Source of the DNA: Thermoanaerobaculia bacterium
Lineage (GTDB): Bacteria; Acidobacteriota; Thermoanaerobaculia; Multivoradales; UBA5704
Direction: 5' to 3'
Assembly: GCA_044226625.1 (NCBI GenBank)
Contig: JBGAGQ010000018.1
Span: forward strand, 33,616-97,615
Length of the DNA stretch: 64,000 nucleotides
Under the pieces are notes generated by a model. It was not told the DNA's origin, did no database searches, and was given only the letters and a program-made list of their open reading frames with translations. Shown here piece after piece: positions 2,901 through 44,258 of the stretch. Position numbers and translations under genes: made by a program. Within the stretch, counting starts at the first letter, position 1, and every line of letters begins with the position of its first letter.

Positions 2901-3203
2901 ATGATCGCCAGCCCTCAGAGCGCCGGACCGCAGACCTGCGCCTACCATCAGGACCGAGGCGCGCACGCTCGCTGCGTGTCGTGCCGCAAACCCCTTTGCC
3001 GCGGCTGCGCGACGCCGTGGGAAGGAATCTTCCTCTGCGCTGCATGCCTTTCGGAGCGCCGGGCGACGGTCGAGCGGAAGGGCTCGTTCTGGGGGTGGGG
3101 CAAGCTTGGCGTGGGATTGATCGCCGCGGCGGGCCTCGCGGTTCTCCTGCTCGCGTGGGTGCTGGGACTCTGGGCGGAGCTGCTGTCGGGGAGCGGTTCG
3201 TGA
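2901..3203 (+). CDS. Small B-box-like zinc-finger membrane protein
   Basis: CAYH..CVSCRKPLCRGC..LCAAC followed by one TM helix. Stop overlaps the next GTG. Confidence 0.75.
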   Translation: MIASPQSAGPQTCAYHQDRGAHARCVSCRKPLCRGCATPWEGIFLCAACLSERRATVERKGSFWGWGKLGVGLIAAAGLAVLLLAWVLGLWAELLSGSGS

Positions 3204-4066
3204 GGGATCGCCTCGGCCTCGGCGAGCTGCTCGATCGCGCCGCCCAACTGGTACGCGAGCTGCCCGAACGGACGGCGCTCGCGATGCTCGCCGGCCTGCC
3301 GTACCGGCTCCTCCAAGTCTGGCTGTTCCATCGCCTGATCGAGCTGGGCTCGACTGCGACCCAGCACGGTCGTTACCTGCTCTCCCTCTCGCTCTGGTCG
3401 ATCGCGGCGCTGCCGCTCGCGTTCTGGGGCAAGGCACAGCTCGCTCGCGGCTGCTCGATCGCCCTCGCGGGGGAGGACGCCTCGCTCGCCCGGTCGCGCT
3501 TCGGCATCCCCTGTGCCGCGTTCCTCACGGGCCTGTATCCGGCGTTGGTGGCGCAGGCCTTATATCCCGCGTTCGGCTGGATGGTCCTCCCGTTGCCACT
3601 CGTCGCGGCCTACTCGGGTCTCGCCGCGGCGAGCGCCCCCTATCAGGAGAAGCCGGGCCTCTGGGTGCCCCTCGAGGTTCCCGCCCGCGGTTTCGCTTCC
3701 CCGGTGCTCCTCGCCGGGCTCTGGACCGCGACGGTGGTGGGCCTGGTGATCGCATGGTTCCAGATCTTCGTGCTGTTCGAGCTTGGCCTCTGGGCGGCCC
3801 AGACGGCGATCGGAGCCGGCGGGGTCTGGTGGCAGCAGGCGCTCTCTCCGTCGAACCGTTTGTTCGTGTTGCTGGTCATCGCCGGAGCGATCTTGGTGGT
3901 CGAGCCGTTCTGGATCGCCGGCCTGTCGATCTTGGTGCGGCGCGGTCGCGCGCGGGCGACGGGCGAGGACCTGAGCGCGTGGATTGCGGAGCTCGATGAG
4001 CTCGACGGGCCGGCCGGCGCGGAAGGGACCGCGGTCGAGACGAGCTCCGAGGAGAACGCCGCGTGA
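3200..4066 (+). CDS. Polytopic membrane protein of the MoxR cluster
   Basis: GTG at 3200 coupled to the upstream TGA. 'LGLGELLDRAAQL' N-terminus, several TM helices and 'GEDL' C-terminal motif typical of these cluster membrane proteins. Confidence 0.7.
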   Translation: MRDRLGLGELLDRAAQLVRELPERTALAMLAGLPYRLLQVWLFHRLIELGSTATQHGRYLLSLSLWSIAALPLAFWGKAQLARGCSIALAGEDASLARSRFGIPCAAFLTGLYPALVAQALYPAFGWMVLPLPLVAAYSGLAAASAPYQEKPGLWVPLEVPARGFASPVLLAGLWTATVVGLVIAWFQIFVLFELGLWAAQTAIGAGGVWWQQALSPSNRLFVLLVIAGAILVVEPFWIAGLSILVRRGRARATGEDLSAWIAELDELDGPAGAEGTAVETSSEENAA

Positions 4067-20944: not shown

Positions 20945-21015
20945 GCGGGCTCCTAGAGCTCCTTTCTTCCGCCGGTGCTATCGTTCCTCCCGACGAACCC
21001 TGGGAGATCGAACGC

Positions 21016-21942
21016 ATGCCGCGACTCGCTTTGTCGCTCGGAGGAATCGTGCTCGCCGCCGCCTGCGCCACGGCCTCACCGCCGCTTTCGAAGGCGTCGT
21101 CTGGAGGGGCCAAGCCGGCTTCGAGCGTCGCCGCGGCGATCGAGTCGGCGCTCGCCGGCTCCCAAGGGATCACCGCGGTGGCGTTTTTCGATCTCCAGAC
21201 GGGGGAGTCTGCCGGACGCCAAGAGCACCTCCGCTTCCACGCCGCGAGCACCATGAAAGTGCCGGTGCTGGTGGAACTGTTCCGGGAGGTCGACCGGGGG
21301 GAGCTGGCCCTCGATCGCCCGGTTCCGGTGAAGAACGAGTTCAAGAGCCTGGTCGACGGCTCGCCGTTCACCCTGGACTCGAAAGAGGACGGCGATCCCG
21401 ACTTGTACGCCGCCGTCGGGGAGAGCCGGCCTCTCGGCGAGCTCGCGCGGCGGATGATCCAGCGCAGCTCGAACCTGTCGACCAATCTGCTGATCGAGCT
21501 GCTGGGCGCGAAACGCGTCACCGCGGAGATGAGGACGCTCGGGGCGCAGGACATCGAAGTCCTCCGGGGAGTCGAAGACGAAAAGGCGTTCGAGGCCGGC
21601 CTGATCAGCTCGACGACCGCCTACGACCTCGCGGTCATCCTGCGCGCGATCGCCGAGAAGAAGGTGGTTTCACCCGCGGCGAGCGCGACGATGATCGAGA
21701 TTCTCGAAGGGCAGGAGTTCAAAGAGAAGATCCCGGCGGGCTTGCCGCCCGGCACGCAGGTCGCGAACAAGACCGGCGACATCACCGGTGTCCATCACGA
21801 CGCGGCGATCGTCTTCCCCCCGGGCCGGGCGCCGTACGTGCTCGCGGTGCTCACCGAAGGGTATTCGAGCGAGGAAGAGGCCGACGCACGAATCGCCGCG
21901 GTATCGAAAGCGGTGTGGCGAGCGCTCTCGCCATCCTCTTGA
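21016..21942 (+). CDS. Class A beta-lactamase-fold serine hydrolase, probable lipoprotein
   Basis: ASTMK (SxxK), SSN (SDN-like), KTG and HD motifs. LAAAC lipobox-like signal. Confidence 0.88.
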   Translation: MPRLALSLGGIVLAAACATASPPLSKASSGGAKPASSVAAAIESALAGSQGITAVAFFDLQTGESAGRQEHLRFHAASTMKVPVLVELFREVDRGELALDRPVPVKNEFKSLVDGSPFTLDSKEDGDPDLYAAVGESRPLGELARRMIQRSSNLSTNLLIELLGAKRVTAEMRTLGAQDIEVLRGVEDEKAFEAGLISSTTAYDLAVILRAIAEKKVVSPAASATMIEILEGQEFKEKIPAGLPPGTQVANKTGDITGVHHDAAIVFPPGRAPYVLAVLTEGYSSEEEADARIAAVSKAVWRALSPSS

Positions 21943-22041
21943 TTTTCATTGAGATCGCGGCGTGATGCCACGAATCGACGCGCGGAGACGGAACCCTTCG
22001 GCCGATCGCACGATGCCGCGCAGGAGCTTCGTTTCTCGTGG

Positions 22042-22262
22042 GGGAAAGCCGCTCGAAGGCCCCGGGAAGCCGCTCTCTGCGCTGGGAAGCCAATTTCTTT
22101 CGGTGGATAGCCGCTATACACGCCAGATAGCCGCTCTCTGCGCCAGGAAGTCGTTATTTTTCGGCGGATAGTCGCTTTATTCGCCTGGAAAATCGCTATC
22201 CCCGCTGGGAAGCCGCTATGCCCGCTGGGAAGCCGCTATCCGCGCTCGAATAATCGCTTTTG
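22042..22262. repeat. Degenerate tandem array, 11 units with 20-21 bp period
   Basis: Core (G)G[GA][AT]AG[CT]CGCT-like anchors at 22047, 22068, 22088, 22109, 22129, 22149, 22170, 22191, 22211, 22231 and 22252, separated by more variable 8-10 nt segments. Confidence 0.8.
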
Positions 22263-22396
22263 GCCGACTACGGCGGCTAGACGGCAGGGCGCGGCCGAAA
22301 AGCGAAACCGCCCGGCGCTTCGCCACAACCGCGGCGGACAACGGCTTGCGGCGTACGCCATTGGCTGTCGCTCGATCCTTTGCGCTTTGCGGGTCG

Positions 22397-22717
22397 CCCC
22401 CCTCCTGGCCTCCCCCCGCAAGCGGAGGGAGGGACGTGCTTACCGGCGTTGGTGGGAGAGCGAGCCCCCAGCGGGTTTTCCGGAGGCGCCGTCCTTCTTC
22501 TTCCCCCCGCAAGTGGGGGGAGGGACGTGCTTACCGGCGTTGGTAGGAGAGCGAGCACCCAGCGGGTTTTCCGGAGGCGCCGTCCTTCTTCCTCCCCCCG
22601 CAAGTGGGGGGAGGGACGTGCTTACCGGCGTTGGTAGGAGAGCGAGCACCCAGCGGGTTTTCCGGAGGCGCCGTCCTTCTTCCTCCCCCGCGTGCGGGGG
22701 GAGGACCGAGGTGGGGG
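22397..22717. repeat. 91-bp tandem repeat (3 units plus a fourth palindrome) built on a REP-like hairpin
   Basis: Palindrome CCTCCCCCCGCAAG[CT]GG[AG]GGGAGG variants start at 22409, 22500, 22591 and 22682. The ~66-bp linkers are almost identical. Confidence 0.92.
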
Positions 22718-22857
22718 CGTCAACCGACAGCCCTGCGATGCGGCCATGGGGCCGAAGCTCGCGATAGAATCGCATCCGTTCCTCGGGAGGTCCCCTCCCA
22801 ACTCCACTCGACCTTCTAGACTTCAGATTCTCGATTCGACATTCCAAAGAGGGACGC

Positions 22858-23925
<1,068 letters not shown>

Positions 23926-24018
23926 AGGGCCGGCCCCTGATGTGATTTTCGCGAACCTTGCGCCAAGCCTATCGAGAAGGCGAAATTCTTCGCCCTCTAC
24001 ATCGATGGGAGATTGGCC

Positions 24019-24204
24019 ATGAAAGCGAAGCGCAACCGGAAGCTGAACTTGAGCCTCGAGACCGTTCGGCGTCTCAACGGAATCGAGATGGCGGCCGTGG
24101 CCGGTGGGGCGACGTCGAACTGCACCATGAATCCCAGGGTGTGTACGACGTCGGACCGCTGCACCGAATCCTGCGGCCCGATCTCCGTCTGCATCTGCGC
24201 CTGA
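24019..24204 (+). CDS. Lanthipeptide-like precursor 1 (double-Gly leader; core ATSNCTMNPRVCTTSDRCTESCGPISVCICA)
   Basis: GGGAG SD. Leader 'RKLNLSLETVRRL...VAGG'. 31-aa core with 6 Cys and 9 Ser/Thr. Lies upstream of lanC. Confidence 0.88.
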   Translation: MKAKRNRKLNLSLETVRRLNGIEMAAVAGGATSNCTMNPRVCTTSDRCTESCGPISVCICA

Positions 24205-24214
24205 GCCGGCCGGC

Positions 24215-24242
24215 GGGATGCCGGGAGGGATCCCGGCATCCC
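24215..24242 (+). terminator. Strong GC stem-loop after precursor 1
   Basis: GGGATGCCGGGA-loop-TCCCGGCATCCC. There is no U-tract, so it may stabilise or process mRNA rather than terminate it. Confidence 0.5.
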
Positions 24243-24340
24243 CATGACGAAAGCGGGGCGTGATTCGATTTCGCCGATCCTGGCGCCTATCCTTTCGAGA
24301 AGGCGAAATCCATCGCCTCCCTACGGATAGGAGTCCGTCC

Positions 24341-24529
24341 ATGAAAACGAAGCGGAGCAGGAAGCTTTCCTTGAGCGCGGAGACGGTTCGGCGCCTGACC
24401 GGGAACGACCTCGCGGCGATCGCCGGCGGCATCACCTCGGTCTGTACCGCCAACCCGAACCCCGGCTGCACCACGTCGGACCTCTGCACCGACTCCTGCG
24501 GCCCGATCTCCGTCTGCATTTGCCGGTAA
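24341..24529 (+). CDS. Lanthipeptide-like precursor 2 (core ITSVCTANPNPGCTTSDLCTDSCGPISVCICR)
   Basis: AGGAG SD. Leader 'RKLSLSAETVRRL...IAGG'. Paralog of precursor 1 with 6 Cys. Confidence 0.88.
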   Translation: MKTKRSRKLSLSAETVRRLTGNDLAAIAGGITSVCTANPNPGCTTSDLCTDSCGPISVCICR

Positions 24530-24675
24530 GGCGTCCGAGCGGGGCGCCGGCCTCCCGGCGTCCCGTGTCACGGCGGTTCGCTCGCGGCCGCGACGGGGCG
24601 GCTCGCTTTCCTTCCCGCGGGCACCCCTTTCTGTAGGGGGCAACCGCGCCCCTCGAATCCGCGAGGAGATCCACG

Positions 24676-24885
24676 ATGAAGAAGTTGCGCCTGCACAAAG
24701 AAACCCTGCGTTCGCTCGAACGGGCCGGTCTGGCCGGGGTCGAAGGCGGCTTCTGGTCGATCCCCACCCATTGCCCGGACGACTATCCGGACTGCTCGGT
24801 CAACGACTGGTGCCAGAGCGCCAACGGCGGCTGCACCGGTTGGCACCAGTGCCCCACCGGCGACCAGACGATCCTGGTTTGCTGA
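24676..24885 (+). CDS. Lanthipeptide-like precursor 3 (core FWSIPTHCPDDYPDCSVNDWCQSANGGCTGWHQCPTGDQTILVC)
   Basis: GAGGAG SD. Leader 'MKKLRLHKETLRSL...VEGG' (KLxLxKETxxxL type). 44-aa core with 6 Cys, 7 Ser/Thr and 3 Trp. Confidence 0.88.
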   Translation: MKKLRLHKETLRSLERAGLAGVEGGFWSIPTHCPDDYPDCSVNDWCQSANGGCTGWHQCPTGDQTILVC

Positions 24886-24940
24886 GACCCCCTCCCGGAG
24901 GGATCGGCACCTCTCCCGCCGATCCCTCGAGGGTCCACCG

Positions 24941-26329
24941 ATTCGATCGAAGGGCGACGGCGCATGGTTTCCTCTCCTCGGCGCGGAGGATGCCGAAGAA
25001 GCTCGCCGTGCGGTGGTCGCGATCGCCGAATCCCTCGCGCTGCGGAATACTTCCGAATCACACGAGATCGTTTCCTCGCACGATTCCGACAGGCCTTGGG
25101 GGCCCGGCTCTCTGGGCGAGGGCTGCTCCGGGATCGCCCTGTTTTTCGCCTACCTCTCGCGTGCGGCCACCGCGGTCGGCTCGAGCCCGGAGCGAGCCGC
25201 CGAGCATCGGCTCCTGGCCGAGCGATTCGCGGACCAGGGGGCCGACCGGTTGGCCGAGGGTCTGTCGGACCCCTCGCTGTATTGCGGCTTCACCGGCACG
25301 GCCTGGATGATCCGACACCTCGGAACGCTCTGGGGCGATCCGGAGGCGGCGAGCTACACGGAGGAGGTCGATGCCCTTCTCGTCGCCCTGCTCGGCACGG
25401 AAGATTGGACCGCCGAGCTCGATCTGATCACCGGGCTCGCCGGCCTGGGTACCTACGGGCTTCAGGCGATCGCGAGCGGAGGGCCGGTCGAAGATCTCGT
25501 CGCGTCCGTCGTTCGGCACCTCGACCGGAAGGCGGAGGTAAGCGCACACGGGTTCACCTGGTTTACTCCGCCCCGTCTCCTGGATCGCGCCTCGCGAGAC
25601 AACTTCCCGGAGGGGTACTACAACGTGGGCGTCGCGCACGGCGTGCCGGGCATCCTCGCGATCTTGGCCCGCGCCGCGCGGGCGGGAATCGCCGCGGAGA
25701 GGGCGGCGGCTCTCGCGGAGGGCGCTTTCGATTGGCTGATGGGGCAGCGCCTCGGTCCGGAGAGTCCCTCCGTCTTTCCGAGCTTCGTCCCTCCCGGCGG
25801 CTCCCCCTGGCCGTCTCGCCTCGCCTGGTGCTACGGCGACGCGGGCGTCGCCGCGGCTCTCTGGGGGGCGGCCGAGAGTCTCGACGAGCCCCGAATGCGC
25901 CGCGCCGCGATCGACGTCGGGAGGCGGGCCGCGTCCCGCGATCCGGCTTCGGCATGGGTCCAAGACGGCTGCCTCTGCCATGGTGCCGCCGGCCTCGCGT
26001 TGATCTTCGACCGGCTGTTCAAGGCGACGGGGGAGGAGGTTTTCCGCGACGCCGCCGTCGCCTGGTATCGCCGGCTTTTGGGCCAGCGATCCGAGAGTGG
26101 TGTCCTCGGCGGATTCGGGTCTTGGACGTCGCTCTCGGGAGAAGAAGGTGGGTTTCGGAGAGAAGAGCGACCAGGGCTCCTCACGGGAGCGGCGGGGATC
26201 GGACTCGCCCTCCTCGCGGCGATCTCGAGCGACGCCCCGGATTGGGATCAGGCGCTCCTGATCAGCCCCGAGAGGACGCGTTCGAGCGACCGCGGTCGGA
26301 CCGGTCCGGTCGAGAAGGCTGTGCTATAA
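24941..26329 (+). CDS. lanC: Lanthionine synthetase C (LanC)-like cyclase
   Basis: GVAHGVPG, RLAWCYGDAG, LCHGAAG (Zn ligands Cys/Cys/His), GLLTGAAGIGLALL and WD. The frame is open upstream of GTG 25013 (AWFPLLG...). Start placed tentatively at ATT 24941. Confidence 0.9.
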   Translation: MRSKGDGAWFPLLGAEDAEEARRAVVAIAESLALRNTSESHEIVSSHDSDRPWGPGSLGEGCSGIALFFAYLSRAATAVGSSPERAAEHRLLAERFADQGADRLAEGLSDPSLYCGFTGTAWMIRHLGTLWGDPEAASYTEEVDALLVALLGTEDWTAELDLITGLAGLGTYGLQAIASGGPVEDLVASVVRHLDRKAEVSAHGFTWFTPPRLLDRASRDNFPEGYYNVGVAHGVPGILAILARAARAGIAAERAAALAEGAFDWLMGQRLGPESPSVFPSFVPPGGSPWPSRLAWCYGDAGVAAALWGAAESLDEPRMRRAAIDVGRRAASRDPASAWVQDGCLCHGAAGLALIFDRLFKATGEEVFRDAAVAWYRRLLGQRSESGVLGGFGSWTSLSGEEGGFRREERPGLLTGAAGIGLALLAAISSDAPDWDQALLISPERTRSSDRGRTGPVEKAVL

Positions 26330-26339
26330 ATTCGGCCCC

Positions 26340-27209
26340 GTGATACGCCTTGGTGATCTCGAGCTGACCCTGGTCGGCGATGGAGAATTCCGCCTCGACG
26401 GGGGAGCCATGTTCGGGGTTGTGCCGAAGGTGCTCTGGTCGCAGATGAAGGAGCCGGACGCGGACAACCGGATCCGCATGGCGACGAACTGCGTGCTGAT
26501 CCGTCGGGGGAGCGATCTCCTCTTGATCGATAGCGGGATCGGCGACAAACACAACGCGAAATTCGGCGAGATCTACGCCATGGAGCCGCACGCCGTTCGG
26601 CTGCCAGAGTCGATCCGACGGGCCGGATACGAGCTGTCGGACGTCACCCACGTCGTGCTCTCGCACCTCCACTTCGACCATTGCGGCTGGAACACCCGGA
26701 AAAACCCCGACGGGCGGGTGGTGCCGACCTTTCCCAACGCCCGTTACTTCCTCAACCGGGGCGAGGTCGAGCACGCCCGGAACCCTTCCGAGCGCGACCG
26801 GGCGAGCTACTTTCCCGAGAATTGGGAGCCGCTCTTCGAGGCCGGTCAGGTCGAGCTGTTCGATGACGAGGTGGAGGCGATGCCCGGGGTGCGCGCGGTC
26901 AAAGCGCCGGGGCATAACGCCGACATGTGCATCGTTCTACTGGATGGCGGGGCGGACGCCTCGGGCCGACCCGAGCGCGGCGTCTTCTGGGCCGATCTGG
27001 TTCCGACGGTCGCGCACGTCCCGCTACCTTGGATCATGGGTTACGACCTCTATCCTCTGACCACCCTCGAGAACAAGAAGAAGTGGCTGCCGCGCGCCGC
27101 GGAAGAGGGCTGGCTGTCGATCTTCGAGCACGACGCCGAGTCGCCGCTCGCCCGGATCGCCTCGGATCGTCCGGGGCGCTTCCGCGTGGAGCCGCTCGCC
27201 TCCTCCTGA
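26340..27209 (+). CDS. MBL-fold metallo-hydrolase (YtnP-like)
   Basis: 'FRLDGGAMFGVVPK', SHLHFDH (HxHxDH), 'PGH', 'WIMGYDLYP', 'FEHD'. Confidence 0.92.
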   Translation: MIRLGDLELTLVGDGEFRLDGGAMFGVVPKVLWSQMKEPDADNRIRMATNCVLIRRGSDLLLIDSGIGDKHNAKFGEIYAMEPHAVRLPESIRRAGYELSDVTHVVLSHLHFDHCGWNTRKNPDGRVVPTFPNARYFLNRGEVEHARNPSERDRASYFPENWEPLFEAGQVELFDDEVEAMPGVRAVKAPGHNADMCIVLLDGGADASGRPERGVFWADLVPTVAHVPLPWIMGYDLYPLTTLENKKKWLPRAAEEGWLSIFEHDAESPLARIASDRPGRFRVEPLASS

Positions 27210-27264
27210 TCCGAACCGTCTCAAGCGCTTCTCGATTCGAACGCTCTCATCCCCTGGAGACCTC

Positions 27265-28662
27265 ATGGAATCCCAAGACAGTTTCGACCTGATCATCCTC
27301 GGCAGCGGTCCCGGCGGTTATGTCGCCGGCATCCGGGCCGGTCAGCTGGGCCTCAAAGTGGCGGTGGTCGAGAAGGATCCGAAGTTCGGCGGCACCTGCC
27401 TGCATCGCGGCTGCATCCCCACGAAGGCGTTGCTCCATACCGCTTCGGTTCTCGACGAAATCCGGGAAGCGGGCGGCATCGGCATCGACGTCGGCGAGCC
27501 GAAGCTCGACATCGGCCGAGCCCAGGAACGCAAGCGCAAGGTCGTCGACAAGAACGCGCGCGGCATCGAGTTCCTGTTCAAGAAGAACAAGGTCACCGGC
27601 ATCCAGGGCTTCGGCCGGATGGTGGGGCCGCACCACGTCGAGGTCGCCGGGGCGAACGGCACCGCCGTCTACGAGGCGAAGCACGTGATGATCGCGACCG
27701 GCTCCGTGCCGCGCGAGATCCCGATCGCGCCCTCGGACGGCGAGCGCGTGCTCAACTCCGACCACATCCTGGAGCTCCAGCGGATTCCCCAGAGCCTGGT
27801 CGTGCTCGGCGCGGGCGCGGTGGGGACCGAGTTCGCCTCGATCTACACCTCGTTCGGCACCAAGGTGACGCTGATCGAGATGCTGCCGCGCGTCCTGCCG
27901 ATCGAGGACGAGGAGGTCTCGGCCGATCTCGAGAAGATCCTTCGGAAGCGCGGGATCGAGATCCTCACCAACACCAAGATGCTTTCCTGTGAGAAGACCG
28001 AGACGGGCGTCCGCCTGAAGCTCGAAGGGGGCAAGAAGGCCGAGGTCGAGGCCGAAATGCTGCTCGTCGCGGTGGGCCGCAAGCCGGTCACCGAGAACCT
28101 CGGCTTCGAGGCGCTCGGCGTCGAGATCGAGCGCGGCTACGTCAAGGTCAACGAGTACATGCAGACCGCCGTGCCCCACATCTACGCGATCGGCGACGTG
28201 GTGAACACGCCGTGGCTCGCGCACGTCGCCTCGGCGGAGGGGATCCTAGCGGCCGAGCGCATCGCCGGCAAGGAAGCCCGGCCGGTCAACTACGACCGCG
28301 TCCCCTCCTGCACCTATTGCGATCCGGAGGTCGCGAGCGTCGGCCTGACCGAAGCGAAGGCGAAGGAACGGGGCTACGACGTCCAGGTCGGCAAGTTCCC
28401 GCTCTCGGCGCTCGCCAAGGCGGCGATCCTCGGGCGGCCGGAAGGGTTCGTCAAGGTCGTTCGCGACAAGAAATACGACGAGGTGCTCGGCGTCCACATC
28501 CTCGGCGCCCACGCCACCGACTTGATCGCCGAGGCCTGCGTGGCGCTCCAGCTCGAAGGGACCGACGAGGAGCTGTTCCGCACCATGCACGCGCACCCGA
28601 CCCTCTCCGAGGCGGTGATGGAGGCGGCGCACGCCGCCCACGGCCAGGCGATCCACTTCTGA
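27265..28662 (+). CDS. lpdA: Dihydrolipoyl dehydrogenase (E3)
   Basis: GSGPGG, GGTCLHRGCIP redox disulfide, HAHPTLSE. Confidence 0.97.
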   Translation: MESQDSFDLIILGSGPGGYVAGIRAGQLGLKVAVVEKDPKFGGTCLHRGCIPTKALLHTASVLDEIREAGGIGIDVGEPKLDIGRAQERKRKVVDKNARGIEFLFKKNKVTGIQGFGRMVGPHHVEVAGANGTAVYEAKHVMIATGSVPREIPIAPSDGERVLNSDHILELQRIPQSLVVLGAGAVGTEFASIYTSFGTKVTLIEMLPRVLPIEDEEVSADLEKILRKRGIEILTNTKMLSCEKTETGVRLKLEGGKKAEVEAEMLLVAVGRKPVTENLGFEALGVEIERGYVKVNEYMQTAVPHIYAIGDVVNTPWLAHVASAEGILAAERIAGKEARPVNYDRVPSCTYCDPEVASVGLTEAKAKERGYDVQVGKFPLSALAKAAILGRPEGFVKVVRDKKYDEVLGVHILGAHATDLIAEACVALQLEGTDEELFRTMHAHPTLSEAVMEAAHAAHGQAIHF

Positions 28663-36123: not shown

Positions 36124-39100
36124 TTACTTCACTTCGAACTCCATCAGCGAGACCGGCGTGGTGGAGGCCGAGTTGCTGTTGTTCGCCATGTTCGGATCGC
36201 CTTCGGTGCCGGTCACCATCGCCGTGTTCGAAACCAGCCCGCCCACGACCTTCGTCACGGTCACGTCGATCGTCGCGCTGCTACCGCCGAGGAGCGTGCC
36301 GAGGTTGCAGGTGATCGTCGAGGTGCCCGTGCAGGTGCCCTGGCTCGGCACCGCCGAGGTGAGGAGCGTCACGCCGGCCGGCAGGGTATCGACGACCGTC
36401 ACGCCCGTCGCCGAGCTGGTGCTCAGGTTCGAGACCAGGATCTCGTAGTTGAACGTCAGAGTCGCCGCCACCGGTTCCTGGGTCGCGATCTTGGTGAGCG
36501 ACAGATCGACCAACGTCGCGGACGGGTTCAGGACGACGCTCGCCGCGTCGTTGCCCGAGACGACGTCCTGCTCGGACGATGCCGTCTTGCTGAACGTCTG
36601 GATCACGGTCGTCGCGACCGTATTGGTCATCGTGAGAGACATCGTGGCGGTCGCCCCCGAAGCGAGGGTGCCGACGCTCCACGAGCCGGTGCCCGGCGTG
36701 TAACTGCCCTGCGACGGGGCCGAGCCGACGAAGGTCAATCCCGCCGGCAGGTTGCTCGTGAGGACCACGCCGTTCGCCGTCGAAGGACCGGCGTTCTTCG
36801 CCGTCACGGTGAAGACGACGTTCTGGCTGACGGTCGGGGTGTTGTTGTTGACCGTGAGCCCGGTTTGAATGTCGATCAACGGGGCGCCGTTGATCCGCAC
36901 CGCCGCGACGTTGTTGTTCCCCTTCGTGTCGACCTGTCCCTGACCGGAAGAGGTCGCCTGGTTCACCATCGACTGCGCGCGGGTGACCGTCGCGGTGATC
37001 GCGAGCGTCGCCGACGCACCGTTGGCGAGCGAGCCGACGGTCCACAGGCCGGTCGCGTTCGAGTAGCTGCCGACCGACGGGGCCGCCGAGACGAACGACA
37101 GACCCGTCGGTAACAGGTCGTTGACCTTCACCGACGAGGCGTTCGACGGACCGTTGTTGGTGGCGGTAACGGTGAAGACCACGTTGCTGCCGAGCGTAGG
37201 CGTCGCGTTGCTGACGCTCTTGCTGATCGCGACGTCGGACGAGGCGACCAGCGTGTCGGTATCCGTCGCGCTGTTGTTGCCCGGGTTCGGATCGGTGATG
37301 CCCACGGCAGCCGTCACGGTCGCGGTGTTCGAGAGCGAGCCGGTCGCCGAAGACGAGATCGAGCAGACCGCGGTGTAGGTGGCCGAGCCCCCTACGGGGA
37401 CGTTCGCCGAATCGTTGATGTTTCCGGAGCCCGACGCGGTGCAGGTTCCGCCGCCCGCGCCGGCGCAGGTCCAATTGCAGGTGAGCGAAGCCGGGAAGGT
37501 ATCGGCCACGGTCGCCGTGGCGTTCGACGGCCCGGAGTTCGAGGCGACGATGGTGTAGGTGGTGCTGCCTCCCGGAGTCGCCATGGTCACGCCATCGGAC
37601 TTCGTGATCGCGAGGTCGGCCATCGGGCTGAGCGTGTCGGTGTCGGTGGCGCTGTTGTTACCGGGGTTCGGATCGGTCGCGCCTCCGGTCACGGTCGCCG
37701 TGTTCGAAAGCGTGCCGGTTGCCGCGGGCGAGATCGTGCAGGAGGCGGTGTAAGTGACCGAGCCGCCAACGGGCAGATTGGTCGAATCGTTGATGTTTCC
37801 GGAGCCCGACGCCGTGCAAGTTCCGCCGCCCGCGCCGACGCAGGTCCAGCTGCAGGTGAGCGAAGCCGGGAACGTGTCGGCCACCGTCGGGGTGTTGTTC
37901 GACGGGCCGGCGTTGCTGGCGGTGATGGTGTAGGTGACGCTGCCTCCCGGGGTCGCGGTGGTCACGCCGTCGGTCTTGGTGATCGCGGAGTCGGCCATCG
38001 GCGTCAAGGTGTCGGTATCCGTCGCGCTGTTGTTCACCGGGCTCGGATCGCCCGCGACTCCGGAGACCGTCGCGGTGTTCGACAGCGTGCCGGTCGCGGA
38101 GGCGGAGATGGTGCACGAAGCGGTATAGGTGACCGATCCGCCCGCCGGCAGCGTTGCGGAGTCGCTGATGTTGCCGGAACCGGCGGCCGTGCAGGTGCCG
38201 CCGCCCGCGCCGACGCAAGTCCAGGTGCAGGTAAGGACCGCCGGGAACGTATCGGCGACCGTGCCGGTGGTGCTGCCCGGTCCGGCGTTGCTGGCGGTGA
38301 TGGTGTAGGTGACGCTGCCTCCCGGAGTGGCGGTGGTCACGCCGTCAGTTTTGGTGATCGACAGATCGGCCACCACTTCGTCCGCGCCGATCGACGGCGC
38401 GGTCGCCGAACGGGTTTCGTTGTCGATGTCGTCGGTGACCCCGGCGATCGGAACGCCGCCCGTGGCGAGCGGGCTCGTGGGAGTGAGGTGTAGGTCGTTC
38501 GAGGTCGCGAACGGAACCGCGGCCGTCGAGGCCTGCGACGCGTTGTCGTTGGTCCCGGCGCCGGAAAGGGTACTGGTATAGGCCGCCAGAGCGGGGAGCG
38601 TGGTGAAGAAGTTCGTTCCCGCGGTCGTTCCCGCCTGTCCCACCCCCTGCCTCGCCACGTCGGTGCCGAAGAAGTAGGCGTTGTTGTTCCAGGTGAGGTT
38701 CATCGCCGAGGTTCCGCCCGAGGGGAGGTACGCCGCAACGTGCGCGATCGAGGTCGTGCCGCCGGTGATGTTGTTGGCGAAGATGTTGTCGCGGACGTCC
38801 ATGCCGGTCGAGGTGGTCGCAACGATGCCGAACGCCGCCGTGAGCAGGCTGGTGGCCGCCGTACCGGGGAGCGCGCCGTAGAGGTTCACCGAGTTGTTGT
38901 AGATCTTGTGCCCGGTACCTGCTCCGACGCGAATGCCGAAGACGCCGAACGTGGTCGAGAACGCGGCGCCGCCGGTCATGTTGAAGCTGACGTTGCTCAC
39001 GAAGTTGTTCTTGACCGTGACGTTGTTGCCACCGCTGATGTCGAGACCGTACGCGGGGAAGGTGCCGGTGCTGGTGTTGATGATTCCTTGGACGTTGTTC

Positions 39101-42100
39101 TTCTGGATCGTGAGATCCGAGGTGGTGCCGGCGACCACGATGCCGCGAGCCACGGAGCCCGAGCTGCCGCCGTTGGTCGAAATGTCGGAGACGTTGTTGC
39201 CCGTGACGTTGTTGTTGGTGTTCGCCAGCGTACTCGTCACGTTGATGCCGATCGCACCGAAAGCGCCGGTACCGGTGTAGCCGATCCCGGAGACCGTATT
39301 TCCGGAAACGGTCGCGTTGATCGTGCCGGTCGCGAGCCAGATTCCGACGTCGGTCTCGTCGTTCGCCTTGTCGATGTTGCCGACCTGGTTGTTCGTGACC
39401 GTGGCGCCGTTGACCCCCTGCATGTAGAGCGCGACATCGCGGACGGCGTTGGCGCCGCTCGTATTCACCTTGTTTCCGGTGTAGACGAGGTTCGAGCCCC
39501 CCTGCGGGGTCGTGCCGCCGGTCGCGAACACGCCGACGAAGGCCTTCTGGATGTCGTTGTTCTGGATTGTGATGTTCGAGAACTGACCGGCGTTGCCAAG
39601 CGTGGTCGCGTCCGAGATGACGACCGCCGAGCTCGTGTTGGCGCCGTTGATCACGATGCAGTTCCTGAGCGTGTCGTTGCTCACCGGGGTTGCGCCGACC
39701 GAGCCGAACAGGATGACGCTCGGCGAAGTGACGCTCGTGTTGGTGATCGTCAGGCTTCGGTCCGTGCCGGTACCGTTGATCGAGCCGTCGATGGTCACCC
39801 GGCTCGCGCCGTTCATTCGGATCAGGGCGCCGTTGAACGCACCGGTGATCGCCCGGGCCACTCCGGTCGGGTACATCTTCACCGTGAAGTTGCTGCCCGC
39901 CGGTTCCTCGGAGAGCGCGTTCAGGCCGTTCGTACCGTCTTCGCCGACCACCAGGTCGCCGGCGATCTGGATCTCGGCGTTGCCGGTGAAGACACCGTCG
40001 TTGAACGCCTTGAAGATGCCGGTGGCGCCGGTGAGGGTCGCAAAGTCGCAACCGGAGGCGCAGACGGTCTTGATGCCGGCGATCGGCGCCGCGATCAGAT
40101 AGCTGTTCGGGGTCGTCGGCGGGGTCGCGGCCGCCGGGGGATTGGCCGTGTAACCCGCGGCGCCGGAACCCGGGTTCGCGACGACGTTCGGAGTCGGCGC
40201 GCCGTCCTGGGCGACCACGTAGTACTGGATCGTGTCGCCGAGGGCGACACTGCCGCCGGTGACCAGGGAGTAGTCGATCGTGAAGTTGTAGATGCCGCCG
40301 CCGCCGGAAGACCCTTGGGCGGAGGCGAACGCGCCGACGTTGCCCTTACGGTAATAGATCACCGGCGAGCCGATTCCGGTAATTGGCACGCCGCTGCCCG
40401 CGTCGGAGATCGTCGCGGTAAACGGCCGGTTCGAGGTGCTGGTCGTGTTGCCGAGCGGCGCGTAGGCGATGATCGGCGGCGCGAGGTCGACGCCGTTGAA
40501 GTTTCCAGCGTCCGCGCCGATGTCGACCGGCGTCAATCCGCTCCGAGTCTGGCCGTCGAAGTCGTCCGTGACGCCGACGTCCTGACCGTTTGATTCGATC
40601 ACCGTTGGGTTGGTCGGGTGAATGTGTAGGTCGGGCGTCGCGTTGGTCGGATCGTTGTAGGCGGGGTCGCCTTCAATGCTCGCGGCATCCTGGCCGACGG
40701 CGGCTTTCCACGCGGCGAGGTTCGCTACGTCGAGCGAGTTGAAGAAGCCGAAGACGGCGCCCGTGCCGTTCGCGAAATAGACGTTGTTGTTGATCGTGAG
40801 GCCCGTCGGATTCGGCGTCGTGCCGTTGATCTTGACCGCGTAGTGCTTGCCGGTGGCGCCCGCGTTGCTCCGCGCGTTCATGAACACGTTGTCACGGAAG
40901 CTCCGGACGTTGACCGTCTGGGTGCCGTTGAAGGCGTATGAGGCGCCCGTGCCCGCCGTCGGCGCGCCACCGATGTAGACGCTGTTGTGGAAGAAGCTGT
41001 CGGTGCCCAGGGCTTCGTTGATGCCGTTGACGCCGGTGGTGCCGGAATTGGTCGCCGCCGCGCCGATCGCGTTGGCGATGCCGGCCCCGATCGCGATCAT
41101 GTTGTTGCGATAGATGGTGGTGCCGCCCGCGACCCGAATGCCGTTCACCTCGGCCGTGGCGCTGTTGGTCGCCGTGGTCAGGCCGTAGATCAGGTTGCGC
41201 TGGACGACGTTCGCCGTCGAACCGGTAAATTGGATGCCGGTGACGATCGTCGCGGCCGTCGTGTTGGAGTTGGTCAGGTTGAAGATGGTGTTCTGCGACA
41301 ACGTGTGGTTCGGCGTCGTCGTCGTGACCGACATGCCGATGACCGAGGCGGCGGTGGTGGTCCCCGTCCCGTTGTTGTTCGTCAGGTTGCGAACGGTGTT
41401 CGAGGTCCAGACGGCGGCGGCATTGGCGGTGATCATGCCGATCACCTGCGACGCGGTACCCGTCGAGGTGAGTTGCAGCGAGTTGGCGACCGTGCCGCCG
41501 ACCAGGTTCGAGGTCGCGGTCCAGCTCTTGGCGGTCGAGGTGTTCGCGCGCATGCCGAAGAGAATCTGGGTGCCGGACGCCGCGGCGTTCGTCACCGAAA
41601 TGCCGCCCACGCTGTTGCCGGTCGCCGTCCAGTCGTCGACGGAGAAGTTGTAGATGCCGATCGAGTCCGTCGCGGTCGTGGAGTTGGTCGAGAAGGTGAG
41701 CGAACCGGTCGCGGTCTGGCTGCCGACCGTGTTGTTGTTCGAATTGACGAGGCCGTTGGTGAGCAGGATCCCGATCATAGGGCTCCCTGTGCTGGTACCG
41801 TTCGAGGTGACGCCGGTGAGGCTCACCGAGGCGACGGTGTTGTTGCTCACGGTCGTGAGCAAGCCGCCGGTGATGCCGTTGTAGACGATGCCCTGGAATT
41901 TACCCGTAGAGCCGGTCAGGGTGTACACGCCGGTTTGCGTGTTCGAAGCGAAGCCGACGATGTTGCCGGTGATGGTGCAGCCTTGGGCGCCGCTCGTCGC
42001 GGTCGAGTTGCCGAAGTTGATCCCGTTGTGGATCGCGCCCGTGGTCCAGGTGCGGGAGGCCGTCTGGTAGAAACGGTTGTTCGTGATCGACCAGGCGTTG

Positions 42101-42936
42101 CAGCCGCCGTTGGCCGCGACGCCCGCGCTGGTCACGGTCGGCGCGAAGTAGTCGAAGATGTTGTTATTGGTGACGACGTTGCCGCTGTTGCCGATCGCGG
42201 TCGTCGTGGTCGAGCCGTTACAGAGAATCGCCTTCGAAGCCAGGTTCGCACCGGCCGGCCCGATGTTGTTGTTCGAGATCGTGTTGTTGTCGTTGCCGTT
42301 CGCCGTCACGGCGTCGGTCGAAAAGAAGATCGTGCCGCCGTTGGTCGCGACCGAGGCACTGCTCGATCCCTGGATGTTCGAATTGGTGATCAGGTTGCTC
42401 GTGGCGCCGCCGATGAATCGGATCGTGGCGGTACCCGAAGTCGCCGAAGCCGTGGTGTTGGCGATCGTGAGCGAGTTGCCGCCCGTGTTCAGGCCGTCGA
42501 TCGTCACGTTGTCCGCGCCGTTCAGGTCGATCAGGGGCGAGCCCGCCACGATCGCGCCCGAGATCGTGCGGGCCGCGCCGCCGGTCGGGGAGATGCCGAT
42601 CGAGGTGTAGACGGCGGCGCCCGCGCCGCTCGCGTTGAGCACGGCCGGCGCCGTCTCGGTCGTGTCCCCGCTCAAGCCGATGGTGATCGTCCCTTGGTGG
42701 GTGCCGGCATTGATCGCGTCGAACGCCCCTTTGAGGGTCGTGTAGCTCGCGTTCGCGGTGCCGGCGGTCGCCGTCACGTCCACCTGGGCCGACGCGGAAG
42801 CGGCGCCGAACAGGGAGAAAGCGACGAGCAGCACCACAGGGGCGAGTCGCCGGAGCCATTCCGCCGGTGCCGACCTTGCGACATCGCGATGTCTGTGATG
42901 ACCGTCTGCGGTGGACCGACCCGAGGTAAGAATCAT
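36124..42936 (-). CDS. Giant (~2270 aa) secreted protein: parallel beta-helix regions plus six DUF11 repeats
   Basis: GGAG SD before ATG 42936. Signal peptide ending ASA-Q. Asn/Thr/Gly-rich beta-helix repeats, then 'DLxITK...TYTITASNAGP...DPxPxNNSA' DUF11 units. Ends PVSLMEFEVK. Confidence 0.88.
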   Translation of the reverse strand: MILTSGRSTADGHHRHRDVARSAPAEWLRRLAPVVLLVAFSLFGAASASAQVDVTATAGTANASYTTLKGAFDAINAGTHQGTITIGLSGDTTETAPAVLNASGAGAAVYTSIGISPTGGAARTISGAIVAGSPLIDLNGADNVTIDGLNTGGNSLTIANTTASATSGTATIRFIGGATSNLITNSNIQGSSSASVATNGGTIFFSTDAVTANGNDNNTISNNNIGPAGANLASKAILCNGSTTTTAIGNSGNVVTNNNIFDYFAPTVTSAGVAANGGCNAWSITNNRFYQTASRTWTTGAIHNGINFGNSTATSGAQGCTITGNIVGFASNTQTGVYTLTGSTGKFQGIVYNGITGGLLTTVSNNTVASVSLTGVTSNGTSTGSPMIGILLTNGLVNSNNNTVGSQTATGSLTFSTNSTTATDSIGIYNFSVDDWTATGNSVGGISVTNAAASGTQILFGMRANTSTAKSWTATSNLVGGTVANSLQLTSTGTASQVIGMITANAAAVWTSNTVRNLTNNNGTGTTTAASVIGMSVTTTTPNHTLSQNTIFNLTNSNTTAATIVTGIQFTGSTANVVQRNLIYGLTTATNSATAEVNGIRVAGGTTIYRNNMIAIGAGIANAIGAAATNSGTTGVNGINEALGTDSFFHNSVYIGGAPTAGTGASYAFNGTQTVNVRSFRDNVFMNARSNAGATGKHYAVKINGTTPNPTGLTINNNVYFANGTGAVFGFFNSLDVANLAAWKAAVGQDAASIEGDPAYNDPTNATPDLHIHPTNPTVIESNGQDVGVTDDFDGQTRSGLTPVDIGADAGNFNGVDLAPPIIAYAPLGNTTSTSNRPFTATISDAGSGVPITGIGSPVIYYRKGNVGAFASAQGSSGGGGIYNFTIDYSLVTGGSVALGDTIQYYVVAQDGAPTPNVVANPGSGAAGYTANPPAAATPPTTPNSYLIAAPIAGIKTVCASGCDFATLTGATGIFKAFNDGVFTGNAEIQIAGDLVVGEDGTNGLNALSEEPAGSNFTVKMYPTGVARAITGAFNGALIRMNGASRVTIDGSINGTGTDRSLTITNTSVTSPSVILFGSVGATPVSNDTLRNCIVINGANTSSAVVISDATTLGNAGQFSNITIQNNDIQKAFVGVFATGGTTPQGGSNLVYTGNKVNTSGANAVRDVALYMQGVNGATVTNNQVGNIDKANDETDVGIWLATGTINATVSGNTVSGIGYTGTGAFGAIGINVTSTLANTNNNVTGNNVSDISTNGGSSGSVARGIVVAGTTSDLTIQKNNVQGIINTSTGTFPAYGLDISGGNNVTVKNNFVSNVSFNMTGGAAFSTTFGVFGIRVGAGTGHKIYNNSVNLYGALPGTAATSLLTAAFGIVATTSTGMDVRDNIFANNITGGTTSIAHVAAYLPSGGTSAMNLTWNNNAYFFGTDVARQGVGQAGTTAGTNFFTTLPALAAYTSTLSGAGTNDNASQASTAAVPFATSNDLHLTPTSPLATGGVPIAGVTDDIDNETRSATAPSIGADEVVADLSITKTDGVTTATPGGSVTYTITASNAGPGSTTGTVADTFPAVLTCTWTCVGAGGGTCTAAGSGNISDSATLPAGGSVTYTASCTISASATGTLSNTATVSGVAGDPSPVNNSATDTDTLTPMADSAITKTDGVTTATPGGSVTYTITASNAGPSNNTPTVADTFPASLTCSWTCVGAGGGTCTASGSGNINDSTNLPVGGSVTYTASCTISPAATGTLSNTATVTGGATDPNPGNNSATDTDTLSPMADLAITKSDGVTMATPGGSTTYTIVASNSGPSNATATVADTFPASLTCNWTCAGAGGGTCTASGSGNINDSANVPVGGSATYTAVCSISSSATGSLSNTATVTAAVGITDPNPGNNSATDTDTLVASSDVAISKSVSNATPTLGSNVVFTVTATNNGPSNASSVKVNDLLPTGLSFVSAAPSVGSYSNATGLWTVGSLANGASATLAITATVTRAQSMVNQATSSGQGQVDTKGNNNVAAVRINGAPLIDIQTGLTVNNNTPTVSQNVVFTVTAKNAGPSTANGVVLTSNLPAGLTFVGSAPSQGSYTPGTGSWSVGTLASGATATMSLTMTNTVATTVIQTFSKTASSEQDVVSGNDAASVVLNPSATLVDLSLTKIATQEPVAATLTFNYEILVSNLSTSSATGVTVVDTLPAGVTLLTSAVPSQGTCTGTSTITCNLGTLLGGSSATIDVTVTKVVGGLVSNTAMVTGTEGDPNMANNSNSASTTPVSLMEFEVK
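37250..38370 (-). repeat. Three intragenic ~375-bp tandem repeats encoding Cys-containing DUF11 units
   Basis: Units begin near 38370, 37995 and 37620, each containing TC[TSN]WTC[VA]GAGGGTC. Confidence 0.85.
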
Positions 42937-43223
42937 GGGCGTTCTCCAAAGATCTCGGCGGTTCCTTCCCTCGGACATCGCCGGGCGCTCTCGAAGAGGC
43001 GAGGCGCACGACGGACGGGGCGGGGCCCACCAGTGGCTTGGTACCGGATTTCCGGGGGATGCTAGCAGATCTGGCGGTCTACGCGGTGGTAGATCTTCCG
43101 ATCTATTAGGAGAGTGCGTCTTGAGCGTGGCGGACGTTGGCGTTAAGATTTCAAAGCGAAATCGAAAGACTCTCCGCCGCCGTTCGCGCCTGTGACCGGC
43201 GGTCCGAATTCCAGGAGACCGCG

Positions 43224-44258
43224 ATGCGATGGAGCCGCCGTCCACGGCTCGATGGCAAGTGCGGGGTGGCGATGGCGGCCCTCTGGGTGCTGTTCGCCGT
43301 CTCGTGCGGGCCATCCGAGCGTTTCAATGGTCAGCCGGTCGATGCCGGGCGTCCGGTCCCGGAGCTCGTCGGCGTCAATTGGGACGGAAAGAGATTCGAC
43401 CTCAAGAACCTCCAGGGCAGGGTCGTCGTGGTCTTCTTCGGCTACACGTTCTGCCCGGACGTCTGCCCGTTCACCTTGGCGAAGATGAAGCAGGTCGAAG
43501 CCGAGCTCGGCAAGTCGGCCGAAGGGCTCGACGTCGTCTTCGCTTCGGTCGATCCTCAGCGCGACTCGGTCGAGAAGCTGGCGGCGTACGTACCCAGCTT
43601 CGATCGTAGCTTCTATGGCGTACGCCTGGAGCCCACCGAGATCGACCGGGCCTCGCGCTCCTTCGGGCTCACGGTCCAATACGGCACCCCGAAAGGGGGA
43701 GTCGAGACCGACACGAACTATTTCGTCGATCACACGGGCACCTATTTCGTGATCGACCGAACCGGGAAGCTCCGGCTCCAGTTTCCGCCGACGGCCACGG
43801 TCGATCAGATGGTGCCGGATCTCAAACAACTGCTCGCGGCACGTGCGCCCGAGCGGCAAGCTCGCGAGGAGGGCCGGCTGGAGATCCGAGAGGCCCGGGC
43901 GCAGATCTTTCCCGGTCGGGGCGCCGTCTACTTCGAGGTGGTCAACCCCGGCGCGACCTCGGACCGGCTGGTGCGCGTCGAGACGTCGGCGGCGAGCGCG
44001 GCGGAAACCCACGAGACGATCGACGACGGCGGGGTGATGCGCATGCGTCCCCGCCCGGAGGGCTTCGAGGTTCCGGCTGGGGGCACGCTCCGCCTCGCCC
44101 CCGGCGGCAAGCATCTGATGTTGGTCGATCCGAAACCGATCGACCGGGCGTCGCCGACGGAGGGCTCGACGATCCCGCTCACGCTCCACTTCGAGCGGGC
44201 CGGAGCGATTCCGATCCAGGCGAAAGTCGACGGCGCGTCGGAAACGAGCGGCCGATGA
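43224..44258 (+). CDS. SCO1/SenC - PCuAC copper chaperone fusion, probable lipoprotein
   Basis: AGGAG SD and lipobox-like AVSC. SCO motifs CPDVCP and DHTG, then PCuAC motif HET-x6-MRM...GGKHLML. Confidence 0.9.
   Translation: MRWSRRPRLDGKCGVAMAALWVLFAVSCGPSERFNGQPVDAGRPVPELVGVNWDGKRFDLKNLQGRVVVVFFGYTFCPDVCPFTLAKMKQVEAELGKSAEGLDVVFASVDPQRDSVEKLAAYVPSFDRSFYGVRLEPTEIDRASRSFGLTVQYGTPKGGVETDTNYFVDHTGTYFVIDRTGKLRLQFPPTATVDQMVPDLKQLLAARAPERQAREEGRLEIREARAQIFPGRGAVYFEVVNPGATSDRLVRVETSAASAAETHETIDDGGVMRMRPRPEGFEVPAGGTLRLAPGGKHLMLVDPKPIDRASPTEGSTIPLTLHFERAGAIPIQAKVDGASETSGR

Follow-up and report, generated by a model that had tools for sequence, protein, structure and literature searches.

Introduction

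Guided by the leader of the precursor peptide (LanA), the dehydratase LanB glutamylates Ser and Thr residues and then carries out elimination, LanC adds Cys thiols with the aid of zinc, and C39 peptidase-containing ATP-binding cassette (ABC) transporters (PCATs) cut after Gly-Gly (GG). The complex of NisB with the NisA leader has been solved. Prochlorosins, the class II products of ProcM, are described as deriving from many precursors that share a conserved leader but differ widely in their cores, which are hypervariable (PMC7268733; PMC10783134; PMC9872173). Walker et al. 2020 described class I LanAs that have an LxLxKx5L...GG leader and a C39 protease partner, mainly from Bacteroidetes (pinensin-related) (PMC7268733). 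The one paper found to combine Thermoanaerobaculia with lanthipeptides deals with clusters of classes II and III (PMC13083261). Here we analyzed 64,000 nucleotides of a Thermoanaerobaculia bacterium (GCA_044226625.1, contig JBGAGQ010000018.1, positions 33,616 to 97,615; hereafter designated as the window), which carry three small precursor genes, lanA1, lanA2, and lanA3, followed by lanC.

We regard it as likely that the window represents one node of a class I lanthipeptide network that is dispersed and acts in trans, with about 55 scattered peptide genes probably depending on one distant LanB and one exporter. The window corresponds to C4:33616-97615 (contig of 97.6 kb) of a 6.6-Mb assembly comprising 133 contigs (67.7% GC, completeness of 98%, contamination of 5.5%; genome G000). 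The comparison sample comprised 41 genomes including G000, and 8 of them belong to the genus of G000.

Three precursor genes and LanC in the window

Between fbaB and a gene for a metallo-beta-lactamase (MBL)-fold protein, three small open reading frames (ORFs), each preceded by a Shine-Dalgarno (SD)-like site, are followed by an intact lanC (Table 1). Both the content and the flanks agree with the first-pass annotation of this DNA, which described three GG-leader ORFs with six Cys and 7-9 Ser/Thr in each core, together with a LanC retaining GxAHG, WCYG, and CHG, between fbaB and MBL-lpdA. The SD-like sites are located 7-8 nt 5' of the ATG (GGGAG at 24007-24011 for lanA1, AGGAG at 24329-24333 for lanA2, and GAGGAG at 24663-24668 for lanA3). 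LanA1, LanA2, and LanA3 share a leader of the form K-L-x-L-x-x-E-T-x-x-x-L that ends in GG, and the cores after GG contain 6 Cys each and 9, 9, and 7 Ser plus Thr, respectively. NF038153, a curated model of class I leaders, was the best family match for all three (E values of 7e-4, 1.8e-3, and 3.5e-3). Altogether, the match to this leader model, the LxLxKx5L...GG motif, and a core with Cys and Ser/Thr were found in each of the three peptides, as expected for class I precursors.

The window LanC covered model positions 2-350 of 350 in PF05147. The GVAHG, WCYG, and CHG motifs are kept and aligned to those of MadC (8byk, E value of 1.7e-18) and NisC (2g02), and we take their residues, following the NisC literature, to be the zinc ligands (Cys and Cys-His) and the catalytic His. 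These two class I cyclases are the closest solved relatives of the window LanC, and no LanCL chain matched it at an E value of 1e-5 or below among solved structures. A search of genome contigs for loci related to the window LanC yielded one irrelevant partial match, and a protein-cluster search yielded generic LanC clusters only, with no useful taxonomy or context. Neither LanB, LanM, nor a C39 transporter was detected in the 64-kb window by the Pfam scans of 34 proteins (6 + 28) and the whole-genome family searches, as the first-pass annotation had stated.

LanB and the exporter encoded elsewhere in the genome

The first-pass annotation suggested that LanB, a C39 protein, and further leader peptides be sought in the whole genome, and the search recovered LanB and a C39 exporter, both on contig C93, as well as about 55 leader peptides. 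The sole LanB of G000, encoded outside the window, is a single open frame of 1127 aa with both domains, namely PF04738 for glutamylation (E value of 2.7e-172, positions 2-648 of 649) and PF14028 for elimination (E value of 1.7e-68, positions 1-253 of 255), and is flanked by ABC/solute-binding genes on one side and gcvP/gcvH on the other. No LanC was found on C93 (172.6 kb). The only matches to PF04738, PF14028, and PF03412 in the genome lie on this contig, the last of them in the sole C39-ABC exporter (PCAT), which is located 42 kb from LanB, combines PF03412 with ABC_membrane and ABC_tran, and is preceded by an HlyD-like gene. DCG and HFVV motifs, with presumed roles in this protein, were seen by eye. 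Thus, GG precedes the core in all three window peptides and the genome provides one C39-ABC transporter, the pairing expected for the export of GG-leader peptides. No DUF4135 (LanM) match was found in G000, in a search that was weak and gave no match in any control genome either. The usual clustering at a single locus was not seen, as LanB, the core LanC (see below), PCAT, and most of the precursors are separated by tens of kb or by contig boundaries.

Within the genus, every one of the 8 genomes encodes a single full-length LanB, which was never on the same contig as any of the 1-4 LanCs, and the close homologues of LanB are 82-86% identical. Thus, the unlinked state looks maintained rather than decaying. 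The homologues of the LanB and the precursors of G000 are named Thermoanaerobaculia or Acidobacteriota in their sources. As a distant, conserved LanB was found, the dehydratase that seemed to be missing from the window is accounted for.

We modeled the fold of LanB residues 1-800 (alignment of 35 rows) with LanA3 (alignment of 7 rows), together with three controls. The LanB-LanA3 model scored 0.63, versus 0.00 for the best of the three controls, with a contact agreement between runs of at least 28% and a partner pLDDT (predicted local distance difference test) of 36-37. In the calibration, which is only rough for a model built with our own alignments, the mark of 0.63 was attained by 58 of the 80 solved complexes versus 2 of the 110 mismatched pairs. 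In the confident part of the modeled interface, residues 2-15 of the LanA3 leader lie on residues 209-216 and 241-265 of LanB, including H210, H211, L212, V213, A214, L241, E261, and L262, which are invariant in the 35 aligned LanBs. The model thus speaks for a docking of the LanA3 leader on LanB, although its score may reflect likeness to a solved complex.

The first-pass annotation left two readings side by side, a split network acting in trans and a stand-alone LanC, and the single LanB, the single PCAT, a second LanC, and about 55 leader peptides in the genome favor the former. According to the latter, LanC alone would act on the Cys-rich cores, for example by adding thiols onto dehydro residues made otherwise or by adding glutathione in a LanCL-like manner, and the distant LanB would be irrelevant. 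No dehydratase is encoded in the entire 97.6-kb contig and the lanA3-lanC module moves without LanB, both of which would suit this possibility. However, none of the 8 genomes of the genus lacks an intact LanB, which is highly conserved, the leaders are of the class I, LanB-type and were docked by the model on a conserved strand of LanB, the nearest solved relatives of the LanC are MadC and NisC rather than LanCL, and lanA1/lanA2 occur in 5 relatives with no adjoining LanC. We find no specific support for a stand-alone LanC, which is no longer needed to explain the locus, and give it hardly any credence.

Two units of distinct history in the cassette

G000 possesses a second lone LanC on contig C114, between a PTPS-family gene and the gene for a TonB-dependent receptor, and both LanC-domain matches of the genome are stand-alone frames of 466-549 aa. 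In the maximum-likelihood phylogeny of 31 LanCs, the C114 LanC belonged to a core clade with a support of 100/100 and short branches, in which every genome of the genus (8 of 8) is represented once. No precursor gene adjoins any core-clade LanC in the 8 genomes. The window LanC was placed apart from the core clade and paired solely with the LanC of another member of the genus, G007, with a support of 100/100 and a long stem of 0.71. Adjoining the other accessory LanCs of the genus, or within about 2 kb of them, there is likewise a gene for a leader-bearing peptide.

The lanA1/lanA2 family was found at fbaB and/or MBL plus lpdA in five relatives (G001, G002, G003, G004, and G006), while neither LanC nor LanA3 was detected by tblastn in these five loci. 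The fbaB flank adjoins the lanA1 family in G002, G003, and G004, the MBL gene adjoining this family is 84-89% identical in the five relatives, and G002 possesses the same lanA1-lanA2 tandem pair between fbaB and MBL. In blastn, the homology to the five genomes breaks off at approximately 24525-24550, varying with the relative, and is found again from 26317-26319 onward. This gap in homology indicates that the segment of ~1.8 kb at 24530-26316, which carries lanA3 and lanC, is an insertion. In G007, the module is located at another locus, where LanC (53-55% identical to that of the window) and LanA3 (68-69% identical) adjoin each other, next to a major facilitator superfamily transporter gene and an ORF resembling tetratricopeptide repeat proteins (both identified by eye). 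Altogether, the cassette combines two units, namely the orphan precursor pair lanA1/lanA2, which is old, and lanA3-lanC, an add-on module. The first-pass annotation treated the cassette as one unit, a view that the synteny does not bear out. A single ancestral operon of three peptides and LanC was rejected, as the synteny shows two units.

Both ends of lanC deserve a remark. The homology between the window LanC and that of G007 begins at 24962, 17 codons 5' of the first ATG/GTG/TTG codon in the frame (GTG at 25013), and no canonical start was found in the lanC frame between 24887 and 25013. The gene may have a non-canonical start (ATT at 24941, after GAGGG); alternatively, this species may have a LanC with a shortened N-terminus. 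The TAA stop codon at 26327-26329 lies inside GCTGTGCTATAAATTCG (window 26317-26333), which is also found just 5' of the MBL gene in the relatives without LanC. Thus, the C-terminal residues of LanC are encoded by the DNA that flanks the insertion on its right side.

Scattered precursors sharing the leader

A leader hidden Markov model (HMM) built from regex seeds gave 56 candidates in G000, of which 55, on 32 contigs, were kept and one (on C80) was dropped as spurious. On average, the core of these 55 precursors is 34 aa long and contains 5.6 Cys and 7.7 Ser plus Thr. The leader motif was anchored in 54 precursors, and the cleavage site is GG, GA, AG, or GS in 53 (GG in 34). The mean pairwise identity was 0.53 for the motif versus 0.24 for the cores; an identity above 50% was reached by just 2 of the 1431 core pairs. 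Independent of the leader HMM, NF038153 gave 41 matches in G000 at an E value of 10 or below (6 above the cut-off of the model) and 27 at 0.1 or below, and no match above the cut-off in any of the 14 control genomes. Most of the 55 precursors have AAGGAG-like ribosome-binding sites. The k-mer enrichment 5' of the precursors returned SD-like words only (AAGGAG, CGAAAGG) and no common promoter or operator motif. Among 164 coding-like ORFs scanned in 40 of 41 regions (+/-3.5 kb; 51 of 52 other precursors, the C126 region being left out), no LanB, LanC, LanM, or C39 protein was found, and the neighbors were heterogeneous with no single conserved one. The expectation in the first-pass annotation that pipelines would miss such precursors held for one LanA1 homologue named 'hypothetical protein', but one LanA3 homologue and one LanA1/LanA2 homologue are named 'class I lanthipeptide' by NCBI.

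Per genome of the genus, there were 4-31 leader matches. Across the 41 genomes, a strong LanC match was present in 25 and absent from 16, and leader matches were found in 23 of the former versus none of the latter; as kin are not independent, this co-occurrence is a pattern and not a statistic.

A further alternative is that the peptides are secreted disulfide-rich peptides or are modified by other enzymes, such as radical SAM proteins, and merely share a GG export leader, with thioethers minor or absent; maturation would then be due to the C39 exporter together with oxidative folding, or to those other enzymes. Six Cys permit three disulfides, LanA1 showed a weak match to TIGR04149, a leader model for radical SAM targets (E value of 0.003), a radical SAM/SPASM gene abuts one of the other precursors, and GG leaders are described as serving many peptide classes (PMC7268733). 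Against this possibility, we note the distribution of leader matches relative to LanC given above, the co-inheritance of LanC with LanA3, the NCBI class I leader model as the best family match, and the invariant Ser/Thr, which sit 2-6 residues N-terminal of invariant Cys as in lanthionine rings. Altogether, we consider this alternative unlikely.

Several of the scattered precursors have neighbors worth recording. A radical SAM/SPASM gene at C17:4217-5587 (L049:1956-3326) ends 175 bp 5' of the precursor C17:5762-5986 (74 aa, 9 Cys) and may represent a second modification chemistry acting on the same leader. A protein of 897 aa with a tryptophan halogenase domain (E value of 2.7e-105) is encoded at C96:407-3097 (L074), on the same strand as and directly 5' of the precursor C96:1-194, the core of which contains three Trp; the product may be a halogenated lanthipeptide. 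On C84 (L069:3-479, 2200-3495), TauD-family, DIOX_N dioxygenase, and ABC transporter genes flank the precursors C84:15535 and 17118 and may provide local tailoring enzymes. Finally, a further conserved precursor family with 10 Cys and the core ...CEKVYCSGDSNCNWTCGAYSECFF... was found at L009:867-1082 in G007 and C7:6791-7000 in G000; this family adjoins the lanA3-lanC module in G007 and is on a separate contig in G000.

Conservation and possible transcripts of the small genes

Both peptide families, LanA1/LanA2 and LanA3, have conserved homologues in other genomes, which, together with the leader matches, speaks against a chance occurrence. The LanA1/LanA2 family was found in 7 of the 8 genomes of the genus with identities of 67-88% and all Cys invariant, and 14 database proteins, LanA1 itself included, belong to the LanA1 family (67-87% identical). 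All 6 Cys and 6 Ser/Thr are invariant in 15 aligned sequences of the LanA1/LanA2 family. In the LanA3 family (4/4 sequences), all six Cys are kept, plus S28, T31, S41, S48, and T54. The dN/dS values against the G007 orthologues were 0.32 for LanA3 and 0.24 for LanC, and LanA3 is under purifying selection. Five variant sites in lanA3, seen in contigs of the runs X5 and X2, were all synonymous as read.

In the metatranscriptome library X5, a contig of 233 nt with a word depth of 113.7 (depth being a poor measure) spans 24642-24856 over lanA3 and ends in adapter sequence, and a second contig covers 25769-25930 in lanC with a depth of 4.97. These contigs are consistent with, although not proof of, a short and abundant lanA3 transcript. 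No X5 contig lies over lanA1/lanA2, but contigs cannot show absence and this is no evidence against their transcription. The DNA runs X2 and X3 gave partial coverage only.

The first-pass annotation noted that a lanB adjacent to the cassette in close relatives would make it a remnant of an ordinary class I cluster. On this reading, a LanBC cluster would be decaying, with the precursors and LanC out of use. LanB is indeed within 6 kb of LanC in 10 of the 41 genomes, the ordinary arrangement, but all of the 10 are of other genera and LanB is unlinked in 8 of 8 genomes of the genus. The nearest relatives of the window LanC outside the genus include one located 5.5 kb from LanB (G013), and the start codon of lanC is uncertain, both of which might be expected of a remnant. 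On the other hand, all frames are open with the catalytic motifs kept, the dN/dS values are 0.24-0.32, the five lanA3 variants from other samples are all synonymous, the LanA1/LanA2 family is conserved with its Cys invariant, and an RNA-library contig covers lanA3. A decaying remnant is therefore very unlikely in our view.

A proposed route from precursor to product

The gene content, conservation, synteny, and leader family of the network were read directly from the genomes, and we infer dehydration, ring formation, the assignment of cyclases to peptides, and export. LanA1, LanA2, and LanA3 would be translated as precursors whose leader is of a known class I type, LxLx(K/R)ETLxxL...GG, and this leader would bind the recognition element of the only LanB in the genome, on C93. 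LanB would dehydrate Ser/Thr in the core via glutamyl-tRNA-dependent glutamylation and elimination, and LanC would add Cys thiols to the dehydro residues. LanA3 would most likely be cyclized by its neighbor, the co-inherited accessory LanC, and LanA1 and LanA2 most likely by the genus-wide core LanC on C114, because the relatives carry no LanC near the latter precursors. The single C39-ABC exporter on C93, with its HlyD-like partner, would then cut after GG and export the products. As to the origin of the locus, lanA1/lanA2 are old orphans fixed between fbaB and MBL, beside which lanA3-lanC was inserted as a mobile module.

Several points speak against a dispersed network. The assembly consists of 133 contigs with a contamination of 5.5%, so that the presence of LanB in the same cell depends on binning; nevertheless, each of the 7 congeners has exactly one LanB and C93 carries a leader peptide, both of which argue for the same cell. 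The location of genes on different contigs demonstrates a real distance solely in G000, where LanB has at least 82 kb of LanC-free contig on each side. The NF038153 scores of the window leaders, 17.5-19.7 bits, are under the 22-bit cut-off. The score of the fold model may reflect likeness to, or memory of, the solved NisB-NisA complex, and the fold of LanA3 itself is uncertain in the model. The RNA support consists of one contig in one library, in which DNA carry-over is possible. Genes for radical SAM-SPASM, Trp halogenase, and TauD proteins adjoin some of the scattered precursors, and the leader-bearing peptides thus need not all be pure lanthipeptides. Finally, dehydration and thioethers are predictions.

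With the dispersed network as the likely reading, we tentatively propose a modular 'plug-in' economy of class I biosynthesis, for which the chances seem to us slightly below even. A vertically inherited LanB, the core LanC, and the C39 exporter might serve as a fixed chassis, and new products might arise through the diversification of orphan precursors at any place in the chromosome or through mobile precursor-cyclase modules relying on the resident dehydratase and exporter. If true, this would be the class I equivalent of the prochlorosins, with a universal dehydratase versus substrate-dedicated cyclases that bring their own ring specificity.

Features of the locus and its surroundings

Table 1. 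Features of the precursor-cyclase locus, with positions in the window
Feature	Position	Strand	Evidence and remarks
fbaB, class I fructose-bisphosphate aldolase	22858..23925	+	NF006707 E 4e-189, PF01791; conserved left flank, outside the system
lanA1, 61 aa	24019..24204	+	leader MKAKRNRKLNLSLETVRRL...AGG; core with 6 Cys, 9 Ser/Thr; NF038153 E 7e-4
GC-rich hairpin after lanA1	24215..24242	+	perfect 12-bp stem, 10 nt past lanA1 stop
lanA2, 62 aa, lanA1 paralogue (72% identical)	24341..24529	+	NF038153 E 1.8e-3
Inserted module lanA3 + lanC, ~1.8 kb	24530..26316		absent from the fbaB-lanA-MBL locus in 5 relatives
GC-rich hairpin after lanA2	24540-24565		similar to the lanA1 hairpin
lanA3, 69 aa	24676..24885	+	leader MKKLRLHKETLRSL...GG, core FWSIPTHCPDDYPDC...; 6 Cys, 7 Ser/Thr
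GC-rich hairpin after lanA3	24898-24928		similar to the lanA1 hairpin
lanC, putative accessory class I lanthipeptide cyclase, 438 aa from first canonical start	25013..26329	+	PF05147 E 5.4e-43; stop codon TAA
MBL-fold gene, YtnP-like	26340..27209	+	PF00753; NF047919 E 3e-57, under model cut-off; conserved right flank, outside the system

Downstream of the MBL gene, lpdA is followed by 2-oxoacid dehydrogenase genes. The hairpins after the three lanA genes have no T-run and are thus not among the three terminator-like sites of the region, a number that does not exceed the shuffled expectation of 1.5 +/- 1.2; any function of the hairpins is conjectural. The promoter scan of the region returned 0 sigma-70-like sites, and no Rfam match was found in 21000-27500. 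The regions 5' of lanA1 (23975-23998) and lanA2 (24296-24320) share TCGAGAAGGCGAAAT, followed by a short hairpin, the arms of which are AGAAGGCGAA/TTCGCCCTCT ahead of lanA1. TCGAGAAGGCGAAAT and the hairpin could be a conserved 5'-untranslated region element of the lanA1/lanA2 family.

A 91-bp tandem repeat is located 5' of fbaB (22409-22704; 3.3 copies, 95% matches) and yields many spurious overlapping ORFs, and a 20-bp repeat lies near it at 22194-22246. Two giant genes on the minus strand of the window are unrelated to the cassette, namely 36127-43323 for a DUF11-repeat protein of 2399 aa and 48598-54183 for a protein of 1862 aa with a multicopper-oxidase-like domain.

Comparison with known systems

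As in the nisin system with NisB, NisC, and NisT, the network comprises a full-length, two-domain LanB and a LanC with the His/Cys/Cys-His zinc ligands, and the modeled docking of the leader presumably resembles the solved NisB-NisA complex. Unlike nisin clusters, the genes form no operon, the leader is of the GG/C39 type instead of having an FNLD box cut by a LanP protease, and one LanB would act on many substrates.

If the predicted chemistry holds, the C93 LanB would be a class I dehydratase of naturally broad substrate range, useful for peptide engineering as are ProcM and SyncM, and the accessory LanCs would provide a natural test of how cyclases control ring topology. The architecture is unusual in that LanB is unlinked from all cyclases, in the ~55 hypervariable precursors, and in the precursor-cyclase modules that can be inserted beside old orphans. 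Mining limited to gene neighborhoods undercounts class I lanthipeptides in Acidobacteriota.

The prochlorosins of marine picocyanobacteria, made by ProcM/SyncM, are described as products of one leader-guided machinery and dozens of scattered precursors missed by neighborhood mining (PMC7268733; PMC10783134; PMC9872173), and G000 is similar in having 55 precursors with one LanB, but with two LanCs. No LanM was found in G000, in the weak search noted above; instead, class I LanB and LanC occur with an LxLxKx5L...GG leader, which fits the class I model and is not of the Nif11 type. In further contrast to the prochlorosins, the dehydratase and cyclase genes are unlinked, and extra cyclases travel with particular precursors.

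The class I LanAs of Walker et al. 2020 (PMC7268733) share the leader motif, the Gly-Gly end, and the C39 partner with those of G000, to which NF038153 matches. Those systems are described as clusters within seven genes of LanC, whereas LanB, the core LanC, and the C39 exporter each stand alone among housekeeping genes here, with ~55 precursors per genome and in Acidobacteriota. LanC-like genes without a nearby dehydratase are also described in Bacteroidales (PMC10352776), but according to that source the proteins are without the Zn-ligand motifs, are encoded near carbohydrate-active enzymes, and occur in genomes without LanB, while the motifs are kept and LanB is present here. Finally, correlational networking identified unclustered lanthipeptide protease genes, in which a needed maturation gene is far from the precursor (PMC8960859); as far as that source describes its systems, only the protease is unclustered, whereas here every component is.

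Searches of the open literature, which did not extend to subscription journals and supplements, returned no account of a class I system that is dispersed and has tens of precursors, nor of add-on modules of precursor and cyclase. LanA, LanB, LanC, and the C39 PCAT are all known families, and it is the unclustered, modular architecture that sets the system apart as a variant.

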